Of a stretch of 62,507 bases of DNA, positions 1,354 to 35,995 are shown in pieces. The DNA comes from Vairimorpha necatrix. Its lineage: Eukaryota. How positions within the stretch are numbered: position 1 is the stretch's first letter; every line of letters starts with the position of its first letter. The stretch is from NCBI GenBank assembly GCA_036630325.1, contig CP142737.1, positions 930,001-992,507 on the forward strand, written 5' to 3'. Made by a program: the position numbers and the translations under genes. The notes under the pieces are model-generated. The model was not told the DNA's origin and did no database searches. It worked only from the letters and a program-made list of their open reading frames with translations.

Positions 1354-2460
1354 TTAGCATATGTAAATATTAATATTAATATATTGGGTTTTATTAATTT
1401 ATTATAATTTGTTTTACATGTGATCTTAACAATAGAATATGTATTATTTCATAATTATTTACGATTTCTGAGTGTAAAAGATATTTTTACGCTAATAAGT
1501 GTTTAGTCTACAATATATATTGTTAGCATACTTTACTAAAATTAATTATTTCATTAGTTTATTAGTTATGGCGTAGCGGTGGTGCTAAAAATCTAATACG
1601 TAAATAAAAAGCGGCATTTGCCCCTCTTCGTTTGTATATATTACAATACAATATGTAGAAGAAATCAAATGATACGAATTGACGATAAGCACAATTTTTT
1701 AAAATAAATCCTAAAACTTATTTTTAGGTAAGTAATAGACTTTTTAGGAAACCTCACTAGACAATAAGCCTTAAAACTTACCTCACCACTATTTATCTGT
1801 GTAATTTTTGTATTTCAACTTTTTTTTGTAAAACAATTTAAAGTTCTACGAAAATATACAACTTTTACGGCTAAAAAAGAAAACAAAAAAAAATTAAAGT
1901 ATAAAAAGACTGTCTTTTTTAACAATTAAATGAGAGGAAAAACACACATAGAAACATTAGTTGACATTGTAAAGCTTAACTTTGCTAAGATGTTATAGAA
2001 TGAGTATTTTTAATAATCTAATCGAATCTTTATGAAAGTTCGTTAAAAGAACCCCCAAAGCTGATACTTTATATAGGATGCGTATCATTTCTGAAGTAAT
2101 TTAACAATTAATTTTGATATGTTCTATCAACTACGTCTACTAGTAGGATATTTTTTATTTAAATTATAACTGTAGATAAAAACTTTTTTAAACCATGCAA
2201 TTTGCGAAAAAATTTAAATCAAATCTTATAGTCAAACAGCTTTCTTCTTTCTCTAAAGTTATTTATTGCATTTAAGCCTGTAATATTTGTATGTAATCCA
2301 AGAATGATATTTGCAAAATTAAATGTTTATTTTTATGTTATTTAAAAACATTAAGAATTCATTTACTTAAATCGAAAATGTTTCTAATCTTTTTCATAAA
2401 TTTGTGACCAAACTATGAAAATCTATAATTAATTTTAAGAGGAAAAAACGAAATAAACGA

Positions 2461-2569
2461 TGTAGGAAGTGCCACATATGTCAAATATATTGTGTCCGTG
2501 TTTTGATATATTTGACATGTTGTTTCTTAAATATTTTATAATAAATAAACCCATGTTTTCATTCCAACA
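2461..2569 (+). repeat. 5' LTR (109 bp)
   Basis: tgtaggaagt...attccaaca, identical to 6051-6159; contains a 13-bp hairpin, AATAAA and CCC-ATG. Confidence 0.97.
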
Positions 2570-5500
2570 ATTTGGCGAGAACGACAAGAAAGAGTTGATA
2601 TTTAGAAATGAAGAGGATGATGACCCACAGCAGTTCGTGGAGGACATTTTAGAGGTGGGGAGGTTGCTGGAGTACAGCGAGGGGAAACTGATGCTCCTGT
2701 TCAAAATGTCTCTAAAGGATGAAGCGAGCGACTGGATTAATTCACTGCCAGTAGGACTTAGATTTGATAAGCTAATTGAATTATTTAAAGAAAGATTTTT
2801 TAGTAAAATGCAGTTAAAAATATGCATTGATAAACTTTCGGCGTTAGTATACCATGGAGGCTCGATTTTAAATTATTTGGATAAGATGGCGGGACTAGCA
2901 CGCAAAGGTAATGTCCCGGAGAGTATATTAATTGCCTTTGCGTTAAAAGGACTACCCAAGGAGTTGGCAAATTTGGTGCTAGTAAATAATAAAGATACCT
3001 TATCGTGGAGGTACATTTACAGAGCTCTGAGTAATATGAAGTCAGCGAATGTCCAAAGATATACAGAAGTGGCTCGAGGAGAATCTAGGGAGGTAGATGC
3101 GATAAAAGAAAAGGTCTGGTGGAACAATAATGAGAAAACAGAAAAAAATGGAAAAATTAAGTGTTTTATTTGCGGGAAAAGGGGCCATATAGTTTCACAA
3201 TGCAAATTCAATAGCTTCCATAAGAATGTTAGAGCTGTAGAAAAGGCCACAGAGAAGGAGGAACAAAATGAGGAAAATGATTCTTATAAGTTTATTTTTA
3301 ACTATTCCGTGTCGAAGTCTAAGGACATTAGAACAACACTTAAAGCTGCGTCATTATTCAATTCAGGAGGAAAATTCAAAGTACTGATTGATACAGGAGC
3401 CGATTTAAATCTTATTAGACCAGAACTGTTACCGAATAAAACTGTTGTTAATATTTCGAAACAACAGCTTAGAGCAGCAAATGGTTCGAGGATAAAAATT
3501 ATTGGTGAAACGGTAGTTAAAATTAAAATTGATGGGATGATATTTGAGGATAAATTCATTATAACAAGAGATATCACAATCCCATGCATCATAGGACATG
3601 GGCTACTCGATAAATACAGAATTAGTTTAAGATTTGGGGATAATAGAATGGAAATTGAATCTGGACAAATGGCAAAGGGTAAAGCCATAGGATACCATAA
3701 AATCATCACGAAGGATGATAACCCAATATTATCACAGTTATACAAGTTGGGTGCTGCAAAAGAGGACATAGCATCGAAAATAATAAAAGAATATCTTAGC
3801 TTAGGAATAATAAGACCTAGTGAAAGTTCATGGAGAAGCCCAATAATTATTGTTCCAAAAAAGAATGGAGACCATAGGCTATGCGTGGATTATAGAAGAC
3901 TGAATGACGTGACGATTAGGGATGCATATCCAATGCCCCGTGTAGAAGAATTCATAAACGCATTAGAAGGTGCTACTTACTTTACCAAATTAGACGCTGA
4001 ATCTGGCTATCACCAAATAGATATGGCGCCTTGTGATATTGAGAAGACAGCTTTTGCCTGTAGAGAAGGGTTATTCGAATTTACTAAAATGCCATTTGGG
4101 CTTGTTAACGGACCAGCTACATTTCAGCGGGTGATGAATGATATATTAAGGGAATTTTTGTTTAAGTTTGTTGTAGTATATATGGATGATATACTAATTT
4201 ATAGTAAAACTGAAGAAGACCATAGGAGAGATGTTCAAATGGTATTGGAAAAGCTCAAATCGGTAGGATTGAAACTTAATCAGGAGAAATGCGAATTTAA
4301 GAAGACCGAGTTAAGAATTTTAGGTCATGTAATATCAAAGGAAGGAATAAGGGTAGATGAAGAGAGAGTGAGGAGTATTCAGAAGCTACCAATCCCTAAA
4401 AATAAGAAAAAGCTACAATCATTGTTGGGGTTGTATAATTACTGGGCAAAATTTATAAAAAACAGTCACAAGATAATTAGCCCATTATTTGATATAATCA
4501 GGCTCAAGAATGAGGACGCTGAGAACTTTTGGAAAAATGTAGAACAAAACGCTAAATATCGTAAGGATATTGAAGAGGTAAAACAGGCCATGAAGAGAAC
4601 GGCCTTGTTGACTATCCCAAACTTGAAGGATAAGTTCATTTTGACAACAGATGCATCAAACGAGGGATGTGGCGCCACTTTGGCACAAGTAATTGGAGGA
4701 AAAGAAAAGATTGTTTCTTATTACAGCTCCCTGCACTCAAAGACGGAAAAGAATTACTCCACGACGGAACAAGAACTATTGGCGGTAATAAAATCCATTC
4801 AACATTTCAGAGAATACTTATTATTAGGTAAGTTTACATTAAAAACTGATCATCAAGCTCTGAAATATTTATTTAAGTCTAGAAACGTCAAAGCTAGGCT
4901 GGCTAGATGGTCATTGATTTTACAAGAATATGACTTTGATATTGAATACATAACAGGACCATCAAACCATACAGATCACCTGAGCAGAGAATTTAAAAAG
5001 GAGGGAGAGAATGTTTTGGAAATTCATTTAGTACAAAAGAAAGTTATAAAAAAAGAGAGAACATCGGTATTGTTAAAGTTTTATCATGATTTATTGGGCC
5101 ACGGATCAAAACAAAACATGAAGTACAATATTGGTCAAAAATACACCTGGAAGCATATGAACAAAGATATAGAAGACTATGTAGACAACTGTGAAGTTTG
5201 TCAAAAGGAAAAACCTCAGAGAAAATTTAAAGATATTGTACCAGTGGTAGCAAATAAATTAGGAGAAATCTGGGAGTTAGACATGGTAGGCCCTCTGAAA
5301 GAGAGTGAGCAAGGATACAAGTTTTTATTAACAATGATAGACCATTTCTCAAAAATCGCAGAGGTAGTGCCGGTTTATACAAAGGATATGAATACGGTTG
5401 TTTATTTGATCGATAAACATATAGTCAGGAAACATGGAGTTCCGAAAGCCATACTAACTGATAATGGTAAAGAGTTCAGAAATAAAATCTGTGATGAATA

Positions 5501-6050
5501 TGCAAGGATTAAGAATTTCATCTGGAAATATGGTTCCCCCTACAAACCTACGACCACGGGGCTTGTGGAGAGATTTAATAGAACAATGGGTTCAAAGTTA
5601 AGGAAAATTACGGAATTTGGGAAATTTGATTGGGCAAAATGCGTTCCTAAATTGGTCAAGGCCTATATGCAGTCTGACCATAGGGCTATAGGCTGCGCCC
5701 CAGTAGAACTTATTACAGGAATGGTGCTTAATAAATTGGACTTACAGGAAGGGATTAAGACATCAAAAGAAAAGAAAGAATATCAGGAACAGGCCATTAA
5801 AAATTTAGAAGCCTACAGACTTGAGTATAACACGGGTGGAAAGAAAAATGGTGAGAGTAAGGAAACCATAAAGGTTGGAGATAGGGTCTGGTACTATTTA
5901 ATTCTCCCTATAAGAGGAAAACTTGAACCTAAATGGGAAGAAAAAGGAGTGGTAGTAGAACAAAAATTTCATTCATTTAAAGTTTTATTGGACAGTGGAA
6001 AAACAGTTACGGCAAGCCGAAATCATGTAAAGCTTTTAAAGGAGGGGTAG
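2553..6050 (+). CDS. Gag-Pol polyprotein (zinc knuckle, aspartic protease, reverse transcriptase, RNase H, integrase)
   Basis: CFICGKRGHIVSQC (CCHC), LIDTGAD (protease), YMDD (RT), TTDAS (RNase H), H-x4-H...CEVC plus ELDMVG/LTDNG/VERFN (integrase). Start placed at the CCC-ATG at 2553 instead of the ORF-track GTG at 2469 (inference). Confidence 0.95.
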   Translation: MFSFQQFGENDKKELIFRNEEDDDPQQFVEDILEVGRLLEYSEGKLMLLFKMSLKDEASDWINSLPVGLRFDKLIELFKERFFSKMQLKICIDKLSALVYHGGSILNYLDKMAGLARKGNVPESILIAFALKGLPKELANLVLVNNKDTLSWRYIYRALSNMKSANVQRYTEVARGESREVDAIKEKVWWNNNEKTEKNGKIKCFICGKRGHIVSQCKFNSFHKNVRAVEKATEKEEQNEENDSYKFIFNYSVSKSKDIRTTLKAASLFNSGGKFKVLIDTGADLNLIRPELLPNKTVVNISKQQLRAANGSRIKIIGETVVKIKIDGMIFEDKFIITRDITIPCIIGHGLLDKYRISLRFGDNRMEIESGQMAKGKAIGYHKIITKDDNPILSQLYKLGAAKEDIASKIIKEYLSLGIIRPSESSWRSPIIIVPKKNGDHRLCVDYRRLNDVTIRDAYPMPRVEEFINALEGATYFTKLDAESGYHQIDMAPCDIEKTAFACREGLFEFTKMPFGLVNGPATFQRVMNDILREFLFKFVVVYMDDILIYSKTEEDHRRDVQMVLEKLKSVGLKLNQEKCEFKKTELRILGHVISKEGIRVDEERVRSIQKLPIPKNKKKLQSLLGLYNYWAKFIKNSHKIISPLFDIIRLKNEDAENFWKNVEQNAKYRKDIEEVKQAMKRTALLTIPNLKDKFILTTDASNEGCGATLAQVIGGKEKIVSYYSSLHSKTEKNYSTTEQELLAVIKSIQHFREYLLLGKFTLKTDHQALKYLFKSRNVKARLARWSLILQEYDFDIEYITGPSNHTDHLSREFKKEGENVLEIHLVQKKVIKKERTSVLLKFYHDLLGHGSKQNMKYNIGQKYTWKHMNKDIEDYVDNCEVCQKEKPQRKFKDIVPVVANKLGEIWELDMVGPLKESEQGYKFLLTMIDHFSKIAEVVPVYTKDMNTVVYLIDKHIVRKHGVPKAILTDNGKEFRNKICDEYARIKNFIWKYGSPYKPTTTGLVERFNRTMGSKLRKITEFGKFDWAKCVPKLVKAYMQSDHRAIGCAPVELITGMVLNKLDLQEGIKTSKEKKEYQEQAIKNLEAYRLEYNTGGKKNGESKETIKVGDRVWYYLILPIRGKLEPKWEEKGVVVEQKFHSFKVLLDSGKTVTASRNHVKLLKEG
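2573..2589 (+). other. Primer-binding site
   Basis: TGGCGAGAACGACAAGA 3 nt after the 5' LTR; complementary to a tRNA 3' end with discriminator G (Ser-like, tentative). Confidence 0.75.
6038..6050 (+). other. Polypurine tract containing the pol stop codon
   Basis: aaaggaggggtag directly abuts the 3' LTR. Confidence 0.85.
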
Positions 6051-6159
6051 TGTAGGAAGTGCCACATATGTCAAATATATTGTGTCCGTGTTTTGATATA
6101 TTTGACATGTTGTTTCTTAAATATTTTATAATAAATAAACCCATGTTTTCATTCCAACA
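6051..6159 (+). repeat. 3' LTR (109 bp)
   Basis: Identical to 2461-2569, followed by TSD AACGA. Confidence 0.97.
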
Positions 6160-6188
6160 AACGATATAAGGATAAACATTAAAAGTTT

Positions 6189-7397
6189 TTAATTCAAAAG
6201 ATAATCATTACCTAACTGATGAGTTGCTAATAGTGATGCAAGACTCGCAACAAGCATAGGACACGAATTACTATAAAACGTTATGGCTGAATTATTGGTA
6301 TCATCAATCATATTATAACTGCCATTTCGATGCATGTTTAAATGCTTTTCTATGCGACTAATTCTTTCTTCTTCTTTTTTGTCCATATGATCTTCATTAG
6401 TAATATTAGTATTATCCATCATATTGTTGTTGTTTTCTTGAGTGTTCATATTTAATTTTTTACTACTAATATCTTTTTCAGTTAAATTCTTATTATTGCA
6501 TTCCCCACTGTTATTATAATTGCCTTCTTCCTCATGCCTAATTTCTTTTTCGATATCATCATTCATTTGTTTATTGTCATCGTTATCGGGTTTATCTACA
6601 TCACTAATATCTTCTTTAGCAGTAGTATTATGGTTATTATTTTCTTCCATTTTATTATCATTGGTTTCTTCCGTATAACTTCTATCTTTTTCATTATTTA
6701 TGTGTTTACTGTCATTGTTATTGGAAGTTTCCTCATCATTATTATCTTCTCCAGTATTAACAAATTTATCCATCATAGAATCGTCCATTTTTCTCTTTTC
6801 GTCAACAAATTGGTTTTGGGGACCAATGGTAGCGTATAAATCATCAATGATGCGTTTCTGAGCATCTTCACTAAAAATTTGATTAAAATAAGAATTTTTT
6901 GCATCGAATGTTTTTCTTACGTGTTTATCAAGAATATTTTTAACTGTAAGAAGTTTAAGTTTTCCCATTTTGAAATTTATACATAACAAGGTTTGAAATA
7001 ATAGTTTAGTATGATTTGAAATTTCTTTGTGCAACCTAAGAAGCGATTTTTCTTTACTTGCCGCATATTTTGAGATATCGATATTATTTTCTAGACCTTC
7101 AATATATTTACTAGCATCCATATCTGCCAGATCAATTACATATTCTATCATCTGATTCGACTTTGACTTGTGAAAGATTTTAAAAGGAAAATTCATTTTT
7201 TCCAAAACAGCGTCAAATAGTGTTCTTGCTATCTCTTTATATTCATCTTTGTTATTCTGAAGATTATTTTGTAAAGAGTAAGGATTATCTAGTATCGTTT
7301 CACATTTCACTAAATCAATGTTTGTTGCCTCTGTTATGGCGATAAATATCGATAGCTGTAATTTTATAATGGTAGATATTGCAATTAAATACATCAT
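6189..7397 (-). CDS. Hypothetical secreted/surface protein (402 aa) with Asn/Asp/Glu-rich low-complexity region
   Basis: Long ORF in very AT-rich DNA, CCCC-TT-ATG start context, hydrophobic N-terminus, mildly hydrophobic C-terminus; family not recognised. Confidence 0.85.
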   Translation of the reverse strand: MMYLIAISTIIKLQLSIFIAITEATNIDLVKCETILDNPYSLQNNLQNNKDEYKEIARTLFDAVLEKMNFPFKIFHKSKSNQMIEYVIDLADMDASKYIEGLENNIDISKYAASKEKSLLRLHKEISNHTKLLFQTLLCINFKMGKLKLLTVKNILDKHVRKTFDAKNSYFNQIFSEDAQKRIIDDLYATIGPQNQFVDEKRKMDDSMMDKFVNTGEDNNDEETSNNNDSKHINNEKDRSYTEETNDNKMEENNNHNTTAKEDISDVDKPDNDDNKQMNDDIEKEIRHEEEGNYNNSGECNNKNLTEKDISSKKLNMNTQENNNNMMDNTNITNEDHMDKKEEERISRIEKHLNMHRNGSYNMIDDTNNSAITFYSNSCPMLVASLASLLATHQLGNDYLLN

Positions 7398-7403: not shown

Positions 7404-7985
7404 TAAAATAATTTTATTTATTAGTAGGGGAATATTTACTGATTTTATACATCAAAATTACTTTTTTAGAACTTTCTTCGTTTGTTGTATTAGCAGTTTT
7501 TATCACTCATTCTAATAAAATCTTTGTATTTTTAATTTATCAAGATGATAAATTAAAAGAAATAATCAAACAATAAAATTATTATTTACTAATTTATTAT
7601 TCAAATTATATGCATATTTGTTTGTTTTAAACATATTAAATGTATTTATAAATTCAGTAAATAAAAAATTAAAAATTTGGAGGTTTTAACCATAGAATAT
7701 TCTATTTGCTTATTTGTCTACATATTTTTTATATGTATATTAAAAATTGTAAACACACAACGCAAATATTTTTTGTTTTATTTTATAATATTTTAAAGAC
7801 TTATTTTATATTGTTACGTAAAATAAAGTAATAATATAAATCATTTTCGACATTATAATATAGCGTTGACTATATAAGAAACTATTATTGAATACATAAA
7901 ATTATTTAATTCATACTTTAGTCCGTAAACTTAGATCATTTTATCTTTATTTAGAAAATTTTAGCATATTGCATGTATTATTTAT

Positions 7986-8844
7986 GGAGCATTTTCACTT
8001 TATTCCCCCCCCCTACCAATATAAATTAAGAATTTTTAAAAAATAATCCTTTTTTTCGAAATTCGAAGCGGAAAAAATGTGAAGGAGCAAAAGTCAAAAA
8101 AATAAAGTTGTAATAAAATAGCATATTTACCAAAAATAAAACAATTGTTTTTTCGTTTTTTTCCAATTTTTTAAAAATTTCCTTTTTCAGTTATTGATCA
8201 AGATTTATCTTTATTATACATTACAATGTATAACAACAAAAATCTCTATATAAACATATTATATAAGGTTCATTTGCTGTTATAAATGAATATTTTTCAA
8301 GAATTAAAGAATTTATCAAACATGTAATATTTTACTTTTGAAGCTAAAATATAACATATCTTATTAAAATGACATTATATACGATTCAATAATTCTTTAA
8401 AGAGCATAATATAACATTATTTTTTATCTGTTTGTCTAGAAAACCCAATGAAAACCTTAAAAACAAGACTAATAAATATACTACCAAACTAAGAATAACC
8501 AAACCTAGAATCTGTTTTAAACAACATAAACTGTGTATAAACATGTTTATCTTTGGCAAAAATTAAATGTAATGACAAAAGAAAGCAATAGGTTAAAACA
8601 TATTTTTACAAATTTAGACTTCTATTTAACTCATAGTTTATCAGAAAACATTATCAAATTGGTTTAAATAATATATTTTTTATAAACTATGTTCAAATTA
8701 GATATTTCTAAGACCATTTTTTTACTTATGTATATTTTTCTCTGTTCCTTTCCGCTCTAGAAGCTTTGACTTTTGAAAAACAGGGCTAAAAATAAAAAAT
8801 TCTGTATATATATTGGTAAGGGGGGGATAAAGTGAAAATTAGCC
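7986..8844. mobile_element. Non-autonomous Merlin-like MITE (family M1), copy 1
   Basis: TIRs ggagcattttcactttattccccc.../...gggggataaagtgaaaattagcc; inverted near-copy at 27683-28539; no TSD visible at this copy. Confidence 0.85.
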
Positions 8845-9846: not shown

Positions 9847-11913
9847 TTAAGTATTAGGTAATTCAATCGAGGCCTGTTTTCTTAATCTAACTTCTATATT
9901 ATTTCTCAAAATTTGTATAAAATCATCTTCTATTTCATTTTTATAATCATTTATTGATTCTTCTTGTGTTTCATTTTTTTTTATAAATTCATTAAATATA
10001 TTTTCGATGATTATTTTTCCTTTTTTTATTTGTTCATTTTCATAATATGTTCTAATATCTTCGTCGAAAATATCTTTAAGCTCTTCTTCCAAGGGATTTG
10101 ATTTAATTATGTTTAAATCATAATCTAATGATGAGTTTTTTAACATTTCTCTTATTTTTTTTGTTTCTTGCTCTTTTAACTTTCTCTTTTTTTCATATTC
10201 TTCATCTTCATCTGTATTTTTTTGTAGATTATTTTTTATAATATTGGCCTTTTCCTCTATCTCATTTCCATCAAGTTGAAAGTTTTCACAAATTTCATTT
10301 CTTATGAAATCTTCCTTAATATATTCGTACACAAAACGCGAACTAGCCAATCCTGTAAATAATGATGTCATTTTGCAGACATTTTTCAAAACTTCGTTTT
10401 TATATTTTATAATATTGTTAATATGGTAATTTTCTGCTTCCTTTATGATTTTTACGATATTGATACATCTGCTTTTTCTATCTGCACGAGAAATCTTTTC
10501 ATTATTTTTCCCCTGTATGCATTTATTTATATCTATTAATGATTTCCAAATATATTCGTTGTTTATGTTTTTTTTATTGATGTATTCTTCTGCTGCCAAA
10601 AGTAGGCAAATTTTTATTAAATAACAATCTAAAAATTGAAGCCCTGACAATCTATATGATAATTTATTTATAATTTTGTTTTTATTGTCTTCTTCATTGT
10701 TTGATCTGAATATTATTTCACCTGTTGTGTAATCCAATTCATCTTCCTCTACAATGTACATATGCTTAATAATAAAATTAAATATTAATTTTAAGGCAGA
10801 TCTTTGCTTGTTCATTATTCTCATTATGAGAAATTTAACTTTGTTGTAATTTTTTAGTAATCTATAAAAAAATTCAACACATTTATAATCTTTTGTATTT
10901 GCTATAAAATTAATCTTTTCCAATATTTTCTTAATTTCATCAAAAAAATTATTGTTTATAAATTTTTTTTCACCATCGTCCTTGTTTGATTCATTTTTTA
11001 AATATACAGAATTTTTTGTATATCCATCAAAAAAGCTTATAGAGTCTAAGTGTACCTCTATTTTGAATTTTTTAGGCATTATCTTTTCGATTTTGTTTGG
11101 TGTAATTTCTAAACATCTAATTTCGCCCCTTGCCTCAATATGATATAAATCATTGACGTTAAAAATTTCATATAATTTTTTTAATATTTTTGCGTCATAA
11201 TAACACATATTCTCTGCATCAATTTTAACTAAAATATTAAGTTCTTTATTTTCAAGTTCGTTTATATCAAATTCAAACAAATAACACATATTTTTAATTA
11301 CAATGCATAATCTGAAATAGTAACTATTATCGTCTTCTTTTCTGCTGTAACTTAGCGTGGGTTCTGGGTCTTGCACCTTAGATTCGTTTTTTGAATTATA
11401 CTTTCGCTTCTTCTCAAGAATATTGTGTAAGAAACAACCCCGAACGCAAATATTTTCATAATAAATTTCGGTTCCTTTCTTTTTAATTCTTCTTTCATCA
11501 TTTATTTGATTTAACTTTTCTATAATTTTTTTCACAATTCTGTTACTTTGTCGATATTTAGATTGTCTATATAATAATACGATAGAGTCAATGTTTAAAG
11601 TCGATTTAATCTTCTTTATAAATTGTTCTATTTCTTCGATAATATTATAAGTGGATTTATTAGCATAATCAATAATTATATATCCAAATTCATTAGAAAT
11701 AGTTTCATTAAAAATATTATTCACAAGCAAACAACATAATTTCTTATTATTTTCACTACAAGTAATTTGTATTTGGGTATATTTCTTATTTAGGTTGAAA
11801 ACTGTATACTTCCTATTCTCAATTTGCTTTAGTATAATTCCATTTATTTTGTTATAAATATTTATATTTGATTTTACAAACCAAATTACAACAAAAAATT
11901 TGATTATATTCAT
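9847..11913 (-). CDS. Hypothetical protein (688 aa) with signal-peptide-like N-terminus and charged C-terminus
   Basis: Long ORF, CCCC-TA-ATG start, MNIIKFFVVIWFVKS N-terminus; family not recognised; frame stays open 58 codons past the stop. Confidence 0.85.
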   Translation of the reverse strand: MNIIKFFVVIWFVKSNINIYNKINGIILKQIENRKYTVFNLNKKYTQIQITCSENNKKLCCLLVNNIFNETISNEFGYIIIDYANKSTYNIIEEIEQFIKKIKSTLNIDSIVLLYRQSKYRQSNRIVKKIIEKLNQINDERRIKKKGTEIYYENICVRGCFLHNILEKKRKYNSKNESKVQDPEPTLSYSRKEDDNSYYFRLCIVIKNMCYLFEFDINELENKELNILVKIDAENMCYYDAKILKKLYEIFNVNDLYHIEARGEIRCLEITPNKIEKIMPKKFKIEVHLDSISFFDGYTKNSVYLKNESNKDDGEKKFINNNFFDEIKKILEKINFIANTKDYKCVEFFYRLLKNYNKVKFLIMRIMNKQRSALKLIFNFIIKHMYIVEEDELDYTTGEIIFRSNNEEDNKNKIINKLSYRLSGLQFLDCYLIKICLLLAAEEYINKKNINNEYIWKSLIDINKCIQGKNNEKISRADRKSRCINIVKIIKEAENYHINNIIKYKNEVLKNVCKMTSLFTGLASSRFVYEYIKEDFIRNEICENFQLDGNEIEEKANIIKNNLQKNTDEDEEYEKKRKLKEQETKKIREMLKNSSLDYDLNIIKSNPLEEELKDIFDEDIRTYYENEQIKKGKIIIENIFNEFIKKNETQEESINDYKNEIEDDFIQILRNNIEVRLRKQASIELPNT

Positions 11914-12258: not shown

Positions 12259-13205
12259 GGTTCAAGGGCAGTCTGGTGGCCAAAAATCCCTTAAAAGGAA
12301 TTTTTAAAAAAATCACCCCAAAAATGAAAAGTCCAAGGGAAAAATTTAAAAATCATTTTAATAATTTTATCAAAAAAATCCCCTTCAAAATTTCTTCTAA
12401 GCATAAATCTTACCAAAGAACTCTTTATTAATCTTTTTGTTCTATGCCTTATGGAAGTTTCACTTTTAACAGCGCTCCAATTACCTTCGATAGTATTAGT
12501 ATGGCATGAATTATTATTATTAACAAATTCTTTTGCATGATTAACCGTCTTATGTTGTTGAAAAATTGAACACAACCTAGAATATGAAGAGAAGCAATCA
12601 CTATGTATGATAGATTCTGGGTGAACATATTTAATTAAAAGTTCTTCTAGTGTAGTTGCTCTTCTATTATCAACAGAGGCAAACACAATTTTCCTTTGAG
12701 GTGTTCTTTCTACCATTCCAAAAATCCAAACTCCTTCTACCCTATGGCCTCTATGTTATTTTACTTTACCAAACTTACTTTCATCTATTTCCACAACAAT
12801 CCCATGTCCTCCTATTATACCTGTTTCAACGTAAACAGAATTTTCGATGGAATTTACTGTTAAAGAAATGATTTTTCTTACACTTTTAATGCTAATTCCA
12901 AGAAATTCCGCCTTAGATTTATACTTTACATTAACAGACCATAATTTAATAATTAATAACATAGTATTAATTCGAAGCTTGTTATTGTAGAATGGAGTGT
13001 TTTTTAATAAAGACCATTTACTTCTACATTTAGACCAAGTACATCGAAAAATAAAATTTTCATTATATTTTTTACTTATAGAACCACATTTTATACATGA
13101 TTTGCTTGTTTTTTCAATATATTTTAAAAAAAAATTTCGAAAAAGTTTTTCCTCTTGACTTTTCATTTTTGGGGGGATTTTTGGCCACCAGACTGCCATA
13201 GCTCC
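12259..13205 (-). mobile_element. Merlin DNA transposon, full length (947 bp)
   Basis: Ends GGTTCAAGGGCAGTCTGGTGGCCAAAAATCCC and (reverse complement) GGAGCTATGGCAGTCTGGTGGCCAAAAATCCC; encloses a transposase; no TSD. Confidence 0.9.
12291..13166 (-). pseudogene. IS1595/ISXO2-like (Merlin) DDE transposase with one in-frame stop
   Basis: ORFs 12756-13208 and 12291-12716 share a frame: ...VEIDESKFGKVK*HRGHRVEGVWIFGMVER...; motifs CIKC...CTWSKC, VEIDES, IHSD, HTNTIEGNW. Confidence 0.9.
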
Positions 13206-13495
13206 CATTCATTTTAATGTGATGAAGAAAACTCCAGAGTACATCTCTTTGGAACGACAACGAAGATATGATAAAGAGGATGCAGGAGAGGAAGAAGTAA
13301 CTAGAGCTATAAGCGCACTAGCGAATATGGCTTATTAAAGAAGTGTGTCGGCAAAGGAGATTGATCTAAAAATTTAGAGTTGAAAAACATAAATAATTCT
13401 ACAGAAACCAAAGTCTACGAAGAGCCGAATCTAGTGAGCGATACCAAGATAAACTGTGCTAATCTAACTTTAATGATAAATAAAGCTAATAAATT
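13206..13495 (+). mobile_element. 3' fragment of RLE-type LINE (family C), truncated by the Merlin element
   Basis: Reads IHFNVMKKTPEYISLERQRRY; the duplicate at 40707 reads LEAYIQSNVIKKTPESISLERR. Confidence 0.65.
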
Positions 13496-14251
13496 TTTTA
13501 TATGTTGTCAACACTAAACACAAACATTGGCGTACTTACGAATGTAGTAACGACCATGCAACTTTCGTTTGATTGTGTGACACAACTTGACATGTCATCT
13601 GAAACGGTTGACATATTTTTGACATCTGTCCATGTGTTGTAGTAATGTACATCACAGTATTTAAGAAAAACAAAATCTCAATAAAGAATATTAGTTAATT
13701 CACATAAATATGTTTTTATTATTTTGTAGTCGAAATTATTAAAAGGATGTAGTTCATATATAGTTGTAGCAGATCAAATACATATTAATCATATTCTTAC
13801 AAATGACAGTTTTAACTTTGTTGAAAAAATTATTTAAAAAAATTTACTTTAGAGGGTATGGAAAATAAGAATAACAAAATTGCCAGATATTATAGAGAAA
13901 TTGAAATAGATGCCAGTACATCATAAAATTTGCGATCACATATGAAAGTATTTTGTATATAATATAGGATATATACTCGTTTTTGCCGTGTAAAATGTAT
14001 ATTATTTTTTAGTATAACATGTATATATATTAGAAATGTATATTCGGATCGAAGAAAATCTTATATAATCTTATTTTATATAAGAAAGCATAAAACCAAT
14101 ATTGTAAATTATTCTATTATTTGGTTAAATCGCTTAATGATCTTTCGTTCTGACTAATATGAAATGTTTCTTTATGCATAGAAAGAAAACAAAAATTAAA
14201 GGAATTTGAAAATATAAATGGTTTTCATAAAGGATAACAAAGTTTAAATAA

Positions 14252-14318
14252 GTGTGCTTGCAAAAGGGTGCACCTTGATTTGGGATATCGAAGGTCAAAG
14301 GTTTGATTCCCAGTGGGA
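14252..14318 (+). pseudogene. Decayed tRNA-like sequence (Pro-like) or SINE head
   Basis: B-box-like ggtttgattccc, anticodon-arm-like cttgatttgggatatcga; the duplicate has an A-box TGGCAGAATGG. Confidence 0.45.
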
Positions 14319-15069
14319 ATTAAATTAAAATTTATATTCGCTGTGTAGAAATAGATGCTGTTGGGCATACAGACGTCACTAAATATAATATTTCAAAATT
14401 TATAGACTAAACGAATATTATGAAAAGTATCTCTTGTAATGAATTGATCATTAATTTCTTAAATATATTCACAATTCGAATTCTGTTTACGTATAATTTG
14501 TTCTTCTGTGTTTCAAAATACCATAGCTGTATATATTATAGGGATCTAAAAGCCAATTATGGCACTCTTGATGTAGAAATTTATGAAGTTTGTTTTTATA
14601 CAAACAAGATATAGTATTAGATGGAGATCTGTTCAATTATTCATTAATGACAAAGAAGTTTAATAAGTTTGCTTTTAGTGTTCTGTGTGAGAGAAAGACA
14701 CATCTAAGATCTAGATGATTTATTTATATAATATCGACACTAGATTAAAACGATAAATCTACACTGAGTTTTTAAAATCTTCATTTTAATATATTTATTG
14801 ATTTAATGAGCGATTAGAGGCTTGTATATAAAAAAATTCTTACCAAATCAAATCCCAATGGTTACGTCGGAGATAGTGCAGCGCAAGTATTCGGTAATAG
14901 TTAAGAGTTAGAAATTCCCTATATCAATTGGATAATTAACTCTCTTTCTTTTGAGTTCATGTATAATATTTCATCTTCCCTTCTACTCGCCAAGAATATG
15001 AAATTTTAAAGTAAATATAGGCTAAAAGTCAAAATTTTGTTTTTTGAACTTCCAAATTTTTAATATTCC

Positions 15070-15470
15070 AAGGATGACAAGTATATATATTCAAACATCA
15101 AGAATAAGAATAAAATCATGAAAAAATAAATTATCTAAAATTACATAATTTTGATTTTCTTTTTTCATTGATGACAAGTATATATACACATTTTTAAAAA
15201 ATAAGAAGCTGATAAAAATCATGAAAAAATTTTTGTCTAAAATGTCATAATTTTAGAGTTTTGAAATTTTCATTTTATAAATGAGGAAAATTATATATAC
15301 ATATATATATTTACAATAAGACAGAAAAAAAAATCATGAAAAAATAATTAGTCTAAAATGAAATAATTTCTAATTTAAGAGATTTAAATTTTAGATTTTT
15401 CAAACTTGACAATATATATACAAATGTAATAAGATGAAGAAGAAAATCATGATAAATAACTGAGGAAAAT
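15070..15470 (+). repeat. Degenerate tandem repeat, ~105-115 bp, about 4 units
   Basis: aaaatcatgaaaaaat...tctaaaat recurs near 15113, 15217, 15330 and 15444. Confidence 0.65.
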
Positions 15471-18400
15471 AATTACCCCAAAATAATTCATCACAAAAGA
15501 ATTTAGCTATATCACGAAGGCTTTAAAGTAATTATTCTTGACATTGCAAACGACCAATTAATTATTAAGAAGAGATGTATTTGTATATGTATATATATAT
15601 TTAAGAAGAGATAATAATATCAACAAGACGAAAATAGTCCATCAATAAAATTCAGATAAAACAGTATTGTAAGTACAAAATTTTAAAAGTAGACTTAATA
15701 TTTTTTACGATTGGGAAATTATAATTATATCTATCGCTTGCAAACAAAATAAAGTTAGTATATAAAATAGAGAAACATAAAAAATTAGTTTAATCAACAA
15801 ACACTGTTAAATACATTGTTACATAAATATATATCTATATAATCGAACTTAGATGAACTAAGAAATTTGTATTTCGAACAGATTTCCATTAATACTCCAG
15901 AATTGAATAATCTATATGTGACGAGTCATTTGCATACTGAGACGTGCCCTGCCCAAAGGAATAGCCATTATTGACTGGCACATCGATAGACTGAAGAAAT
16001 GATTGACAATAGATGGCAAAATGAGAGGGTATATATATATGTAATAAATACATATAAAGATTTATATAACAAATGTTTTTTGTGTTTTAAATATCTCCAA
16101 TTAGTCATTAGCATTTTACTATAATAAGACACTTTTAGTGAAAGACCAGGAAAGATTGAACATTAAGGATCACAAAGCACAGAAAAATTGAATTTATTAA
16201 ACAAAACAAAAAAGTTCCCTTTTTAGGACGTAAATCAACCTCAAAGTCTATATATAAAATAAATTAAAAATTATATGATACTAGAAATTCAAAATCTCAA
16301 CAAAATTTATAAGCTTTTACGAAGATATGTGTAGATATAATAAACATGGCAAGTGCTTAATATAAATATACATTTATACTAAGATATAAAAATCTTGGTA
16401 ATAAGTTCATATTTATTGCAACAACCAGATGTATCTTTGTTTTCTAGAATGAAATACCCAGAATCAATTACATCATATATTTTATTACAGACTTAACATA
16501 ATAAACAAAAACGTATTTTAATGATATAAAATAAGATAATTTTGAGTTTCTGAGTTATGATAATATCGATTAATTAATATAGAAATAATATTTCATATGT
16601 AAAAAGAATAAACAAATCCTATTAAAGAACCCAATTGATAAAATTAAGTATTGTAAACAATCAAACTATTGTTTTTTTGCCAAGACAATAGCCAACCCCC
16701 CAAAAATTAAATAAAAGACAAATAAAAAAAAAATTTACGTATCTTATATATTCTAAAAATATAATGTCAGTGTAAATGTACTATTATTAATATTCTGTAG
16801 GACTGATTATAGAGATATTGACCATCAATAAATAATAGAAGAGAAATAATCAGTTATTTAAGATAGTAAATGAACAAAAGTTGAAAAATAAAGGAAATAT
16901 AAAGTGGGAAACACGAGATTATAATTATTTATGATTTTGATTATAAATAAAATCATTTTTTACAACATATATACAATAGAGTAATATAATTCTGCAATTT
17001 AATATTTGATATGTTTAGATTTCATTAAGTTAACATTTTATTGTAAAATTATATAATCTTAACAATTGCAAAAAATCATTTTGGGATACTATATTTTTTG
17101 AATATTTCAGAGATAAAAGTGTTTTACATAAGATAAGGTGAATGATCATTTAAATATAACATTAATAAAAAAAAAGTAAATTGGTATATTTTGCATTACA
17201 CCCCCTAATAGATATACTTTCTGTTTGCAAATAAATAGACCATCTAAATCATACATAATTTAAACAGATAAGAGGACGTTGTATACAATAGAAAAGAAAA
17301 CAAATAAAAAGATTACAGTCTAAAAATAGTTATAAAACTGTACACTAAATCAAAATTATTGTTCACATTAGATGCTATACAATGGATTTAATAATTGCAG
17401 ACATAAATTTTGACTACAACTTCCTGGGATTGATTTGGTTGTAAATTAAATTTTTATAAAAAATGCACATATTTTATTTATGTTCTATAAAAAAAGGAAA
17501 ACGACATTATATTCACATTATCAGTTACTTTTAAAATAATTTGACAAATAATAAAGTATGCAGGAAACAAATTAACTTGTTTCGTTCTTATTTCTAATTT
17601 CTAAAAGCAAATTCCGTACACTAATTTTTTTGGCAGAAAAACAAATCCCTAGATGAAAGATTATCGAAATGTCGTTTCTTACAAAAAAAATTGGATAATA
17701 TGTTGAAGCCATTTATAATAAAAACTGCGAAAATATATATATGCGAGAAATTAATATTTACAAAATAAAAGAATCAATTTCTTTGAAGAAACAGTTCAAT
17801 ATTTATTTTAGATGAATCAGTAGTTTACATTCCTCGTGTAAAGGACAAGGAACACATATATCATTATTAAAATAGCAATACTGTCATTGTTATTTGTTTT
17901 TTCCGTAAATCCGAACCTAATCCTCTATCGTATAACAAAACATAAGGTTACACATTTGATAATCTTTAAAAATTTTTAGATTGTAATTTAGTACTGTTTC
18001 TTTAATAAAGATGTATTGTTTTAATAAATATCAGTTGTAGATAAAATCTTGACAAGAAATAAATATGAAAATTACCTTATAAAACCTAGATGAAATACGC
18101 TTTATACGTATAATTCATGTCGAATTAATATGATCAACTTGTTATAAGCTAATATTAAGTAAAGCCGCACGATTCAATGTATCTGTGTAAAATCAAAAAT
18201 AAGATAAATTCTTAGTAAAAAATACATTATGTAAAATATAATAATTTTAAGTATTTATATTTTTCAATTATTATTTGAAAATGACAAGAAACGTATCTAC
18301 AATAAAAATATAATACAAGCGTTAAAATGATGCAAATCTAACACACTCTTAAAAATCGAAAACAACTTGCATTATAGATATAAAAATATGTATATATAAA

Positions 18401-20499
18401 TTTTTAAGTTAATAAATTTGAATATAAAACTGCAACAGCAATATATATAGATTAAATAAAAAAAATATTAGTTAAAAACAAAATAACAAACCGTTTTCTA
18501 TTACAATTTTATAATAAATAGTGTAATATAAGAAAATTTACATTTAGAGTATTAATAAACTGAAAATGAATGTTTCTTATATAAATTAGAAATGAATATT
18601 GTATGAATAATAAGTAATTTTGTATAAAGTAGCTTTTAATATTAAAATTTAAATTTATTTTTTTTGTAGAAGACACTGAATATGTAGAACATTTTGAAAA
18701 TATTTATGAGATATGTATGCATGTCTAGTCCTTTACCTATAAGATTAACGTCCCTATAAAAAAAAACATGGTAACCAAGCCTTTAAAACAATGACTTTCT
18801 AATTTCGGGTTTTTTGAAAAAAATTTTTACGTTCCCCGCACGAAGAAGTTTATTTTGGAAATCATTAAAAAGTTTTATGTAACAATGAGCTTAAAAAAAT
18901 GAAAAAATAGAACTTTACTATTAATGAACAACTTCACTAACAACTAGAAATGAAATGATGTTTAAATCGACCGTTTTTCAAAAAGAGGCCAGTTTTTTAA
19001 AAAAAAACATTACTGATGCAGTGTTTATTGATATTTCTTAATGGTGAATTAACGACTAGAAGGATTTATCTAGGAGCATCTTCTTTTCTTTTATACGATC
19101 CTATATCCCCAATTTCCAAAATTCGAATAACTGGTGGTCAAAGAAGTTTGTAGAAAGCAGTTTCGAATTATAGTAATGTTAGAAGTCGCGTAAAAGATTC
19201 ATTAATGATAAGTTCATTCGTGTAAGTTAATTATGTACATGATTTTGCAATTTGAAATTTATTTAAATCTTAGTTTCTTATTAGCAGTGAATCTTGACGA
19301 TGTAATATAAAGATAGATAAAAACATATGTTCTGAAACGAAAAATTTTACAATATGTACTTTCTGTAGTTTGTATGAGAATTTAAATCGGTATCTATCAA
19401 TTAACTACCTACAATAAACGTATGAGGTTAAATTCAATCTTAACAAAAATCTATGTAATGGTTCTCTCTTATCTTACATGGAAAAAAATAAAAATTAAGA
19501 AGAGAGTAATATTATGTAACAAGAAGAAAATGTCTAGAAATATTTTCTAATGAAGGATCATTAACATTTACGGAAAATTTGTAACAATCGAAAAGCGAAA
19601 TTATGAGATAAGAAATTTAGCATATAATAAAATTTGAAAGTTTGTGTAATAACTAAATGATGTTAATAGTAAAATTTTCTCAACCACATTAATAGCATGC
19701 TGACAAAGCTTCTATATCGGATTTTAAAAGGCTTTATTAGTTATCATACAATTTTAGATAATTGTTTAGTAATAAACAGATAGCAAATTATCATATAAAC
19801 TGTTTACAGTTATAATTAAGATGAATCAGTAGAACAAAATATGTCAAATGTAAAGTTATAAATAATTAGAACATTATATAATTACCAAATTAAAGACTGT
19901 CATTCTATTATAATGAATAATTTTAATGAGTTTAATATATAAAAATATCATAAAAACGTATATATGATATAAATTTTTAAAAATAAATAAGAATGATTAT
20001 TTTATATATATCAGTAAAAATCTAGAATTTAGTATAAAAATATATTTAGAAAAAACATGTTGGTCATTTAAGAGAAGGTGTCTAGTAATTTTGTTGAAGG
20101 TAATGAATTTTGCTTTTTTTTAGAGATAAAGATAATTAACAACGAAGTATAATACAATAAATAATAATAAAGGAATTAATCATCAGATCAAGGCTTATAG
20201 AATTCTAATATTCTTTATCGATGCTAGGTTCATATTAATCTTGTCTATTATATTTAATGAAATTAATCTTTTTGTAATATTTAAGTTTTTATATTTTGGG
20301 ATCTGAAATTATCTTCATTTAAAGAAAATATTTGAAAAAAAAATATTTTAAATATATTATGATTAAACAAAAATGATATATAAAAAAGTAAATAAGATAG
20401 TTTATAGAGTATAATAAGGAAGATATATTTACATTTGAACAAAAATAAAAATAATATTAATATTAATATTGTTGTTTTGTATAAAATAAAAAAAAGGGT

Positions 20500-20722
20500 T
20501 AACTATCAAATACTCTAAGAAAGTAGAAGCGTACATCAAGATGATTAACATAGAAGGCAAACGAAACCATTCCAACAGACTACCGAAGAGATGTACATGT
20601 TCCGATTTGAAAAGGACTAAGAACCGAGAAGCTGCCCACAAACAGGAGTTGCTAACGCGGAACCTATTCAGAAGATACTAGAAATATTAAACACTATTAG
20701 CATATCCCAAATGATTCATTTT
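20500..20722 (+). mobile_element. 3' fragment of RLE-type LINE (family B)
   Basis: aagtagaagcgtacatc...gctaacgcggaaccta...attcatt, homologous to 32290-32572. Confidence 0.75.
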
Positions 20723-23700
20723 TTATAATAGAAAAATATTAGTAATTATGTTGTAATTGTTTGTAAAGATTGTTTATATATATTATAACTTCGGAATTTA
20801 TTATGTTATTTTATGAAAAAAACAATATTTTTCATATTTAGATATAATTTAATCAAATAAACAAGAATTAAATATATGACAAATTAATAATTTTTTTCTT
20901 TATGGAGTATCTACACATCTTATATATCCGGCATGAAGTCTGATCCGAAGTTGAAGTGGTGAGTCTAAACTAACATATTGATTTATATTATTTGTTTGTT
21001 TTGCTGCTCATCGGAATTGTGAATCAGGGGTAAATTCCGTTTAAATAGTCAAATAGATTAACTGTCAAACCCCATGAGATGTAAACAAACAAACAAGAAA
21101 CCGAAATTCTACTAAATACGTAGTACTTCATGTGACATGCACTTTTCTTCTTTTTAGTTTGTGAATGTCAAACATGTCCAATGTTTGTTTACAATGCTCT
21201 GAGATGTTTGACAGCACCAATAATCATTATTTAATTGGAAGCCGTATCGTCAGTATAGGTCTGCAACCTCACACATCTGAATAAATATTAATATTGTTAT
21301 TTCGAATATTATTTCTTGCACAATTTAGTACATTTTTTTTTGGAGGTTGCCAACGTATGTATCTGAATAATTAATTTTTTAAGAAATTTAGATTTATTTG
21401 TCTTTTCGTATGAGTACGTAAGTATATAATTTGCTGTATATAAAATAATTATGAAACGCATTATGTGCAGAATCGCCATAAAAATAAAAAATTGAAGTAA
21501 AGTTAAACATATTAAATCGCCTTTGGACACAATACGTGAATTAAACGATATATTTATTTTTTTTGCAAGACAAAAACATATTTTTAAAAACAAGTAAATT
21601 AGATTCTTTCAAAAGGAAATTTAAACACAATCATTGCGTAATTTAATTACAAAAATGTCTGACACTATATACCAATCATTAAAGACATATAATTTAGTAT
21701 AACAATATATTTGTTGAATAAAATAGGACATATTTATATACAAGAAAAAAGATTATAAATCTATCTTAAACAATTTAGGTATATGCATTAAAGTATTTAA
21801 TAAAATGTTAAAAAACAAAACTTGATAAACTAAATACAAAGGTTTCATAGAAGTGTGTATTAACGATTACTTAATAAGGACGGTTTCAAAGTTTACTCTG
21901 TCAAATATTCACCAATAATACAACAAAAAATGAAAAATTTACAATATGTTTATCCATGCAAAATAAATAACCTTTAACTTACGCAGCTAAAAAATTATTA
22001 CAATAAAAGAAAAAATTTAAAAAATAATTTTGTATATGAAGGGCAAGGAATATCTATGAAGCAAGTCCACAATCATAAAGTTATTAATAACGAAATATTT
22101 TTAGCCTTCTAACTTAAAAGTAGCAAGGTTTTATCTGTGAATAACAGAGAAATAAATGAAAAATAAGAAAGAGCATATTGGTTAAAGAAAAAAATATCTT
22201 TTAAATTTAAAACGAATTCTACATTCAATCTAAATTATATCATAGGTAATAACAAGATAATTGAAATTTGATCTTTCGCCTTTTCTTTTGGTATAAGTAC
22301 GAAAGCAAACAAATAAAATTATTTTACGATCAAAAATAGAATGAGTAAGAAGTGATACAAATAATATTCATTTATTATAACTAGATAGTAAAGGGATTAT
22401 AAAAAGATATACATATGATTCATACATGTTGCTTTTCAAGATAAATACAAAAGAATTTAAAATAAAGATATACGATCAAGATATTATATGAAATACAATT
22501 TTCTTTTATATTAAAATCTACCCAAGATAAACCAAAATAAATCCCAATATTGCATATAGTATATTTTAAATACAATTAAAACAAGTAATGAAATTTTTAA
22601 TTATCTAGAACATATCAACGATTTTTTTAAAAAAAATTATACTAAAAAATCAACTATATATCTTTATATATGACCAATATGTACACGTTATTAAGTATAA
22701 TAATTACTAATGGTAAAAAAACGAAAACAAATATTATATAAAAGTTTTAAACGAATTTCGATTAACCTTGTATATTACATTTTTTTGATTTATAGAATTC
22801 TAAACAAGTTTTAGTTTTAAAACATTGTAAACTTTTTAAATCGAAGTTGGTAAAAAACTAATGTCACTAATATTAATTTGTTGTTTACAATCATATTGAC
22901 CACACAAAATTAGAAATTATGACCAAAAAATTCAAAAAGTAAAATCATTAATACTTTTATCATATTTATAAAAATATATTATTTTATTAATTTCAAATAA
23001 ATAAGAACAAATCAATTCAAAAATCTATCGGTTAAATATTTGATAATCGCTCTTTTGTTGTATATAATACTTTCTAAATCCGTAAAGTATAATATTTTTA
23101 TATAATAATTAGTATAAAATTTAAGTATGAAGATAGAAATATTATAAAAAGAATTCATTTACGAAAGAAAAAAAAATTCTAAATTCATTCAACAATTATC
23201 GTGAAATTATATATTCATTAAGAAAATCATTTATTTAATGTATAATTAGAAGAATTAAAGAAAATTATCAAAAATTAACAATATAAAATCAGACCTATTC
23301 ATTGTAAAATCGTTCAGTAACGGTAAAAAATATTTTACTTAAAAACAACATTTATGTTAAAATTTTAAAAATCCTAGGGAAAACCTACTTATATACATAT
23401 TCCATATTATAATATAATAAGAAATAATAAGTAAATTTTTAATTATGAATAATTAAATAAAAACAATAGCACATACAATTTAATACAAAGTTGTTGTAAA
23501 TAAAACGTATTCGAGATTTTGAAAAAGGCGTCGCATATTCCAAAAAAAAAACCAAAAATACGGGGAGAGGGAATAGAAATGCATACAAATCGAATACAGT
23601 TAATAACAAAAATAGAATTAATTATGAAATGCTATATTTTATAAAAAATCAGATATATATAATAGTTACACGCAAAAGGAATATATATTTCAAAATTTAT

Positions 23701-26700: not shown

Positions 26701-27144
26701 TCATTGATCTATTTTAATATCACATAATTTTATACTGAAATATTCAAATGTAATTAGTTATTACTATTGAATTTTCAAACAAACACTGGAATCTTGTCCT
26801 TAAGTTTCCAAATTATTAAGTCCTTTTACTTTCTTGGAATAGTGATTCAATTTTATCATTCAAAGTGGTTATTTTGAGCTTTCCTAAAAGGTATAATCTC
26901 TTGTGTCTGTATATATGCGATAGTACAGCATTCGAGATTTAAGTTATTTGTATAATATCCCTAAAATATTATTTTTTAGTATAATACGAATATATCCAGT
27001 AAGAAATATGTTAAAACACAAAAATGACCTTTTTTACAATAATATATATTTTAAATTAAAGAAGTAATTTCATACTTTAACAATATATTATAACATAAAT
27101 TTATTCGCAGAGTTACACCAAAAAACTTTGTGTTTTAATTATAA

Positions 27145-31171: not shown

Positions 31172-31319
31172 TATAATCATTAATCTGAAAAAAAAGACTT
31201 GAATTATAAAGATAGTTAGATAAATTTTTTATTTTTATTTATTTAAGTTACATATTGATTAAAATGATAAATTTTTAAACAAAATATTCAGGAAGGTTTG
31301 AGGGCTAAAAGCTAACGTG

Positions 31320-31345
31320 TTAGGAACGTTAGGTAGGTAGGTAGG
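31320..31345 (+). repeat. Interstitial telomeric remnant
   Basis: ttagg-aacg-ttaggtaggtaggtagg at the position equivalent to the telomere junction at 60841. Confidence 0.9.
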
Positions 31346-35500: not shown

Positions 35501-35995
35501 AGTTTTTAGATGATCGATGTATGAAGAAGTTGTGCCAAAGAATTAACCATAATTTTTAATAGTGTAAATATAGAAATTCAACCTTTTAAATTGTACTTAT
35601 AAAACAATAATATACTATATACACTATGAAGCTAAATTATTAAAAAATCTTTAACATAACGTATTTTAACAACAAACAGAAACATACTGTATCGAAATAT
35701 TGGTTAATATATAAAAATCATTGGGGTACTAAGAAAAACAGAACTTATACTCTTTGAAAAAAACAATTGTAAATATGTATATGTATATATAAGAAGGATA
35801 ATGAACTTGAAAGAAGAAGAAAATTAACTTTACTTATGAACAAAAAAAATTAACATGTATAGAATATGTATGTAAAGTAAGAAGTATTGGTTTTTGATGA
35901 TATTTTTATAAGAAAAATAATTTCAAATTTTTTTATAGATAAGTAACTATAGCTTAATAAACATATAAGAATGAAATAACAACGTCGTAAAATTT

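Follow-up and report, generated by a model that had tools for sequence, protein, structure and literature searches.

A compact Ty3/gypsy retrotransposon of Vairimorpha necatrix with a predicted start codon inside its long terminal repeat and a translated primer-binding site

A 62,507-nucleotide stretch of the Vairimorpha necatrix genome (GCA_036630325.1, contig CP142737.1, positions 930,001 to 992,507 of the forward strand; hereafter the window) carries a complete long terminal repeat (LTR) retrotransposon of 3,699 bp at window positions 2461-6159. The entire internal region of this element is coding: a single gag-pol open reading frame (ORF) opens inside the 5' LTR, runs through the primer-binding site (PBS) and closes in the polypurine tract (PPT). 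An earlier note made from the letters alone had placed the ATG at 2553, 17 nt from the LTR end, had read the PBS as translated and had set the TAG against the 3' LTR, and every one of these coordinates proved right. The element is a young, intact retrotransposon, of Ty3/gypsy type by domain order and best protein matches, and it is probably active. Comparison with relatives identifies the translated PBS, as far as sequences can tell, as a trait of the lineage rather than an accident of one copy. Taken as a whole, we favor with slightly better than even confidence a reading in which a recent, intact and probably active member of Ty3/gypsy combines its all-coding interior with a transcript whose terminal repeat (R) would be short.

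The ends of the element were set by reading its junctions. A repeat search found a direct repeat of 110 nt with 100% identity (2461-2570 and 6051-6160), on which blastn agreed. Since the 110th base is the first base of the target-site duplication, the LTRs are 109 nt long. The direct repeats of the TG...CA type, the short target duplication and the PPT AAAGGAGGGG next to the 3' LTR are those of an LTR retrotransposon (Table 1). Along the 1165 residues of the polyprotein the Pfam domains follow the order gag - protease - reverse transcriptase (RT) - RNase H - integrase, which is the order of Ty3/gypsy (Metaviridae), and the closest proteins are Ty3/gypsy-type polyproteins. The chromodomain that marks a chromovirus (PF00385) was absent among the nine Pfam families found at E <= 0.001. 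Alignment A1 shows no variation at the knuckle residues C204, C207, H212 and C217. Microsporidian Ty3/gypsy elements, of which three groups have been published, encode a single gag-pol polyprotein according to excerpts of Parisot et al. 2014 (PMC4202319), and the element likewise has one polyprotein ORF and a microsporidian host. The microsporidian host that the earlier note had recognized from the letters is indeed borne out by a neighboring 688-residue ORF (9850-11913, minus strand), which is 82-87% identical to four V. necatrix proteins.

The element is represented in the one public run that contains it (X1, stored as contigs, its kind not on record) by 223 contigs, of which 44 are identical at >= 99%, 32 at 95-99%, 81 at 90-95% and 66 below 90%. 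As these contigs vary and the flanks are almost uncovered, the element family appears to be multi-copy and diversified. The LTR variants in this run diverge 5' of about 2504-2510 and keep the 3' half (loose ends), so that the part of the LTR with promoter, poly(A) signal, ATG and U5 (unique 5' region) seems to be the conserved part. Within the window, no other copy or solo LTR of the element was found by blastn.

Read from the ATG at 2553-2555, which opens the last 17 nt of the LTR (2553-2569), the N-terminus MFSFQQFGEN... spans the LTR edge and TGGCGAGAACGAC. The LTR end and the PBS, whose region is read as ..QQFGEND.., supply the codons for residues 1-9 of Gag. The PPT supplies those for the final residues together with the stop codon, the TAG abutting the 3' LTR. 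Homology to a related DNA locus (L022, described below) starts at residue 10, the relatives P0001 and P0121 align from the FRNE block (about residue 16), the stretch from the LTR end to residue 10 has no ATG, and the next in-frame methionine after 2553 is residue 47. If translation begins at an ATG, that codon therefore has to be in the LTR. An open LTR frame alone is weak evidence and only mildly unusual, because in 20,000 trials with shuffled LTR bases the same span was open in 6.2% of the shuffled LTRs; an in-frame ATG without a later stop was found in 18.8%.

In the last ~40 nt of the LTR, AAATATTTT, the poly(A) signal AATAAATAAA, CCC and the Gag start codon follow one another. We compared this context with 1956 background ATGs outside the element, taken from both strands of the window. 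A[AT]TAAA within 12 nt upstream was present at 6.3% of them, CCC within 8 nt upstream at 1.7%, and both together at none (0/1956). CCC(C) stands 2 nt 5' of the ATG in both of the two large host ORFs of the window (..TTTTACCCCTT-ATG at 7397 and ..TTTTTCCCCTA-ATG at 11913, each on the minus strand). Excerpts of the literature describe for E. cuniculi 5' untranslated regions (UTRs) of < 7 nt, a CCC-like motif adjoining the start codon, an AAATTT-like signal upstream and AAUAAA ~20 nt 5' of the cleavage site (PMC2803860), and for N. ceranae CCC at -10 to -3 and a TATA motif peak at -27 from the ATG (PMC2685015). The host ORFs and these excerpts on CCC and short 5' UTRs agree with the earlier proposal that the ATG has the context of a microsporidian gene start. 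On sequence grounds, the end of the LTR imitates the start of a host gene, and the ATG at 2553 is the likely start among the LTR ATGs, having a host-type context and being matched by the relatives that start with MF.

A search with the full polyprotein gave 294 proteins at E <= 0.001 among 7,995 scored. The closest relative, P0001, is 51% identical, is also 1165 residues long, also starts with MF and lies on a contig of 3,671 nt; P0004 and P0005 (39% identity) are close polyproteins after P0001 on contigs of 3.4-3.7 kb, and the only named close relative is a polyprotein of Nosema granulosis (P0002, 42% identity). When the first 260 residues (gag) were searched against 1.84 billion representatives, 120 matches were found at E <= 0.001, 35 at <= 1e-10 and 5 at <= 1e-30, and a word-index protein search with gag only returned nothing at E <= 1e-5. 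For the comparison of N-termini, the gag matches and P0001-P0005 were re-aligned, and 66 proteins were kept that match by query residue 30, start with M and carry 7 or more residues ahead of the gag block; later-starting matches and eight short or incomplete rows were left out. The motif [LM]-A-[TSM] stands 6-22 residues before the F.N...DP..F gag block in 34 of these 66 proteins, compared to 71 of 2139 control windows of the same proteins (3.3%). When aligned, it falls into one column and reads N-N-[L/M]-A-[T/S]. Five relatives (P0001, P0121, P0122, P0132 and P0216) have their MF start 6-8 residues before the PBS-encoded peptide. The comparison of ATG positions across relatives that the earlier note had called for places the first methionine 0 to ~35 residues before this peptide, which means that the ATG position is not fixed in the lineage; in the elements of A. 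algerae the ATGs also lie in the LTR.

At the DNA level, 41 related loci were collected from metagenome, genome and viral collections, and L022, a microsporidian-type Ty3/gypsy contig (3582 nt, 39% protein identity, without 3' LTR), is the only one that reaches the gag N-terminus. Its AAC AAT TTG GCA ACA is the LTR end followed by TGGCAACA, the PBS. The 15-mer TTCCAACAATTTGGC is common to L022 and the element and is read as ..S N N L A.. in L022 and as ..F Q Q F G.. here. As the two sequences read the 15-mer in different frames, the conserved thing appears to be a nucleotide word (integrase end plus PBS) and not a peptide. The start of L022 shows TATAAAT at -28, ATTAAA and then CCC directly before the ATG. 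L022 sits in a bacterial metagenome-assembled genome, probably through contamination of the bin, and a search of the genome bin holding it returned only L022 itself; several other of the loci are eukaryote-type retroelements in bacterial or archaeal bins. The 15-mer also occurs in 108 stretches of viral contigs; no fetched locus there encodes a relative, and these were rejected as chance matches.

We propose that RNA polymerase II would start a few nt before the ATG at 2553, within or just after AATAAA, a placement chosen because gene starts of E. cuniculi and N. ceranae show such motifs and short leaders. In that case only the 3' LTR would contribute the poly(A) signal to the transcript, and cleavage would follow about 10-20 nt on, at one of the CA dinucleotides within 2560-2569 (= 6150-6159). 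This would leave an R of some 10-20 nt and a U5 of at most a few nt. Priming at TGGC would be by a tRNA with discriminator G, and packaging signals would reside within the coding RNA, as in Ty1. We regard a very short R, the model of the earlier note, as plausible and give it about an even chance. More tentatively, and at somewhat below an even chance, the lineage may be the most compressed autonomous LTR retrotransposon: ~40 nt would pack promoter core, poly(A) signal, ATG, integrase end and R-U5, the RNA would be near-leaderless, and the N-terminus of Gag would consist of translated cis-elements whose frame drifts. If true, first-strand transfer and packaging would proceed with far less terminal redundancy and without a leader, and an R of truly 10-20 nt would offer a natural minimal system for the study of both processes.

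Several observations weigh against this reading. The N-terminal motif is absent in 32 of the 66 complete N-termini, mostly distant matches with long N-terminal extensions. Six relatives start exactly at M-A-[ST], which is either an artefact of the gene caller or places the ATG over the TGG of the PBS; if these starts are real, the overlap makes R-U5 of these relatives an untranslated leader. In the element itself the reading frame already opens at LTR base 6 and holds extra in-frame ATGs at 2478 and 2517, so a functional Gag with a short extension would still result from a transcription start site (TSS) further upstream. By eye, no exact TATA[AT]A[AT] was seen near -27 of the ATG at 2553, and a tRNA scan of the window found 0 genes and thus no primer tRNA for TGGCGAGAACGAC there. 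The 5' UTRs of E. aedis, a microsporidian with a large genome, are long (mean 180 nt, PMC2474625). The mean intergenic distance of V. necatrix is 3.6 kb in excerpts of its genome paper (PMC10759460), hence nothing forces compaction. The claim of the earlier note that the very short UTRs of the host force the layout therefore goes beyond the evidence, as the ATG position varies, E. aedis has long 5' UTRs and V. necatrix is not compact.

The main rival of the short-R reading is a conventional layout, with a TSS well upstream (e.g. at ~2520-2540, after the palindrome in U3, the unique 3' region) and an R of 30-50 nt, which includes a poly(A) signal that is ignored near the cap and allows ordinary strand transfer as in Ty1 and many retroviruses. 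Such a layout fits everything measured. The open LTR frame with its two further ATGs, the variable leader length of the relatives and the long 5' UTRs of E. aedis all suit it, and in Ty1 an LTR AUG and a PBS within GAG go together with a 5' UTR of 53 nt. However, the CCC abuts the ATG as in host genes, and relatives of the host with such motifs have very short leaders. Transcription from before 2517 would also give Gag 12 additional, hydrophobic residues, which the MF-starting relatives do not have, and a 109-nt LTR would leave little U3. On balance we consider the conventional layout rather unlikely. Far less probable is self-priming of the kind known from Tf1 of S. pombe, a Ty3/gypsy element with a single gag-pol ORF in which the RNA 5' end is complementary to the PBS and the distance between self-primer and PBS allows R-U5 to be copied. 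In the V. necatrix element, the transcript 5' end GUUUUCAUUCCAA would fold onto the PBS UUGGCGAGAAC and prime after RNase H cleavage, replacing a tRNA. A 10-bp interrupted stem of 2555-2567 with 2572-2582 is indeed predicted, L022 can form UGUU.U.CCAA / UUGG.C.AACA with other outer pairs (by eye), and the A. algerae consensuses, in the part of the supplement that was available, have hairpins and no TGG after the LTR end (by eye). Unlike in Tf1, the U5/PBS stem of the element has a 4-nt loop, which leaves almost no template between primer and PBS and copies no R, and the tRNA-type TGGC is conserved, being kept across the lineage as [LM]-A and fitting a tRNA 3' CCA plus discriminator G. Moreover, the RNA fold of 2461-2620 does not stand out from shuffled sequences (z = -0.98), which equalled or surpassed it in 31 of 200 cases, and two sequences are too few for a claim of covariation.

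Two further alternatives are very improbable. Gag might start at the methionine of residue 47, past the PBS, in which case 2553-2690 would be an untranslated leader that is open by chance, as is not rare among shuffled LTRs (6.2%). The earlier note had named such a start as the finding that would speak against it. Residues 10-46 are conserved, though: they align with L022 and, from ~16, with P0001, P0121 and others (FRNE..DDPQ.FV.DILE), and this conserved block before the Pfam gag domain (residue 49 on) would be lost. We likewise give hardly any credence to a dead relic whose compactness is accidental. Transposable elements (TEs) may be silenced in V. necatrix, for which excerpts of the genome paper report Dicer and Argonaute (PMC10759460), but the two LTRs agree at 109 of 109 bases and are flanked by an intact target duplication, 1165 codons run without a stop, 44 near-identical contigs occur in an independent-looking public run, and the same layout recurs in relatives.

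The closest published counterparts are the A. algerae consensus elements in the supplement of Parisot et al. 2014 (PMC4202319), which was available in part and was read by eye; retroE was covered at its 5' end only. In retroA, retroB and retroC, for which both LTRs were seen, A(A)TAAA stands 0-2 nt before an ATG inside the LTR that opens the polyprotein frame, as in the V. necatrix element, and the 5' end of retroE looks alike; over all four consensuses the spacing is 0-3 nt. The A. algerae elements are also similar in size (~3.6-3.7 kb), short LTRs and coding PPT, and retroA has a AGGAGGGG-type tract before the 3' LTR that resembles the PPT here. In contrast, their LTRs are longer (~170-230 nt versus 109 nt) and their ATGs lie 22-98 nt before the LTR end rather than 17 nt. 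The ORFs of retroA and retroB run into the 3' LTR (that of retroA through the PPT) and retroC has its stop in the first bases of the 3' LTR, whereas the element stops before it. After the LTR end the consensuses carry a short hairpin, whose stem differs per element, and no TGG, unlike the TGG found here; this suggests priming other than by a tRNA 3' end. The A. algerae LTR consensuses also show palindromes close to their 5' ends. Elements of Nosema bombycis were reportedly first described by Xu et al. in 2006. That first description and the tables and figures of Parisot et al. lay outside our literature search, which found no published description of an ORF start inside the LTR, or of the PBS, of microsporidian elements; the main text of PMC4202319 has 0 occurrences of 'start codon', 'ATG' or 'overlap', and PMC7313128 has 0 occurrences of LTR/ORF terms.

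Among the well-studied yeast elements, Ty1 of S. cerevisiae differs from the element in being Ty1/copia (Pseudoviridae), with the order protease-integrase-RT, two overlapping ORFs and tRNA-iMet as primer. Its POL ends slightly upstream of the PPT rather than within it. The target duplication of Ty3, the type member of Ty3/gypsy and likewise from S. cerevisiae, is 5 bp. According to excerpts of PMC5454406 and PMC4974528, the LTR of Ty1 has 334 bp, its RNA starts at DNA nt 241 and has a 5' UTR of RNA nt 1-53 and a normal R, hence the AUG of GAG (RNA nt 54) lies in the LTR. Its PBS (RNA nt 95-104) is inside GAG, and packaging and dimerization signals are found in coding RNA (same excerpts). Ty1 thus resembles the element in its LTR AUG and coding PBS and differs from it in its 53-nt 5' UTR and 334-bp LTR, compared to an LTR of 109 nt here. 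Ty3 shares the order protease-RT-RNase H-integrase, but in the excerpts its 5' PBS segment adjoins the 5' UTR and is not in GAG3, it has two ORFs, and its PBS is bipartite across the RNA ends (PMC4974528).

A start in the LTR, a coding PBS and a stop in the PPT are therefore not unprecedented, given the relatives, Ty1 and the sequences published in 2014. The arrangement differs from that of Ty3 itself and, judging from the proteins and loci compared, is general in the lineage of the element. The earlier note had further held that the layout implies unusual strand transfer and packaging. Plausible as it is, this overreaches, as Ty1 combines a coding R-U5 and PBS with a normal R and ordinary replication, so that these features alone carry no such implication. 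For the same reason our finding refines known biology and does not overturn it. The kind of element is already known, and the layout is visible in the A. algerae sequences of 2014; what appears to be new is the lineage-wide PBS-encoded peptide with a frame drift in this copy and an LTR end that mimics a host gene start. The element is an example of an LTR retrotransposon that has adapted its control region to the unusual gene starts of its host and carries its replication signals (LTR end, PBS and PPT) inside coding sequence. The N-N-[L/M]-A-[T/S] peptide could serve as a simple lineage marker and help to set start codons in the annotation of microsporidian genomes, where TEs are usually masked.

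Table 1. Features of the retrotransposon and its insertion site (window coordinates)
Feature	Position	Strand	Details
Target-site duplication AACGA, left copy	2456-2460	+	Identical 5 bases at 6160-6164
5' LTR, 109 nt, TGT...ACA	2461-2569	+	109/109 bases match 6051-6159
Near-perfect palindrome/hairpin, presumed U3	2477-2519	+	16 bp; exact 13-nt arms 2478-2490 and 2506-2518
AAATATTTT, AAATTT-like microsporidian upstream signal	2529-2537	+	Matched by eye; motif from an excerpt of PMC2803860
AATAAATAAA, two overlapping poly(A) signal hexamers	2540-2549	+	Sequence reading
CCC motif directly 5' of start codon	2550-2552	+	Sequence reading
Single gag-pol ORF, 1165 codons + TAG (6048-6050)	2553-6050	+	Start codon inside LTR
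Predicted U5/PBS stem GUUUUC.AUU.CCAA / UUGG.C.GAGAAC	2555-2582	+	RNA fold; whole fold not significant
PBS-like TGG-type TGGCGAGAACGAC, translated	2573-2585	+	Begins 3 nt past 5' LTR
Retrotrans_gag	2697-2957	+	PF03732, E = 2.3e-6, residues 49-135
CCHC zinc knuckle	3156-3206	+	PF00098, E = 6.7e-4, residues 202-218; 20.1 bits vs curated cut-off 20.8
Aspartyl protease	3369-3629	+	PF00077, E = 3.3e-4, residues 273-359
Reverse transcriptase	3852-4334	+	PF00078, E = 6.8e-40, residues 434-594
RNase H	4557-4931	+	PF17917 + PF17919, residues 669-793
Integrase zinc-binding + core	5052-5549	+	PF17921 (834-889), PF00665 (903-999)
Polypurine tract AAAGGAGGGG (6038-6047), then stop TAG	6038-6050	+	All coding or stop; 13 bases up to 3' LTR
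3' LTR, 109 nt	6051-6159	+	Identical to 5' LTR
Target-site duplication AACGA, right copy	6160-6164	+	25 nt from stop of convergent ORF 6189-7397(-)

The window is AT-rich, with a GC content of ~17-30% outside the element and 33-38% inside it, and gene-poor, with 5 ORFs of at least 150 residues in 62.5 kb. Excerpts of the V. necatrix genome paper describe a genome of 15 Mb with 50% repeats and 109 retrotransposable-element genes, in which TEs were masked prior to gene calling (PMC10759460). A scan for sigma-70 promoters and terminators gave nothing above shuffles; it uses a bacterial model and is irrelevant to a eukaryote host. A gap of 25 nt separates the element from the stop of the convergent ORF at 6189-7397 (minus strand), so the element may have replaced the 3' end signals of this ORF. 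The copy of CCC-ATG in the 3' LTR opens only an 8-codon frame into the flank (ATG..TAA, 6143-6169).

The search with the neighboring 688-residue ORF found 7 proteins at E <= 0.001, one of which is the window's own. The ORF has no Pfam match and belongs to a multi-copy V. necatrix family, in which four paralogues are 82-87% identical to it and two 41-51%. Two degenerate stretches of RT from other retroelement families, 26-37% identical to the RT of the element, lie at 28868-29253 and 58396-59254. Both sit at matching places of the two copies of a segmental duplication of ~18-20 kb (13206-31346 versus 40719-60868), which comprises four collinear blocks of 85-88% identity. Smaller repeats pair 1-331 with 12849-13182 (97%) and, inverted, 7985-8844 with 27683-28540 (94%), and a tandem array is located near 35989-36825.

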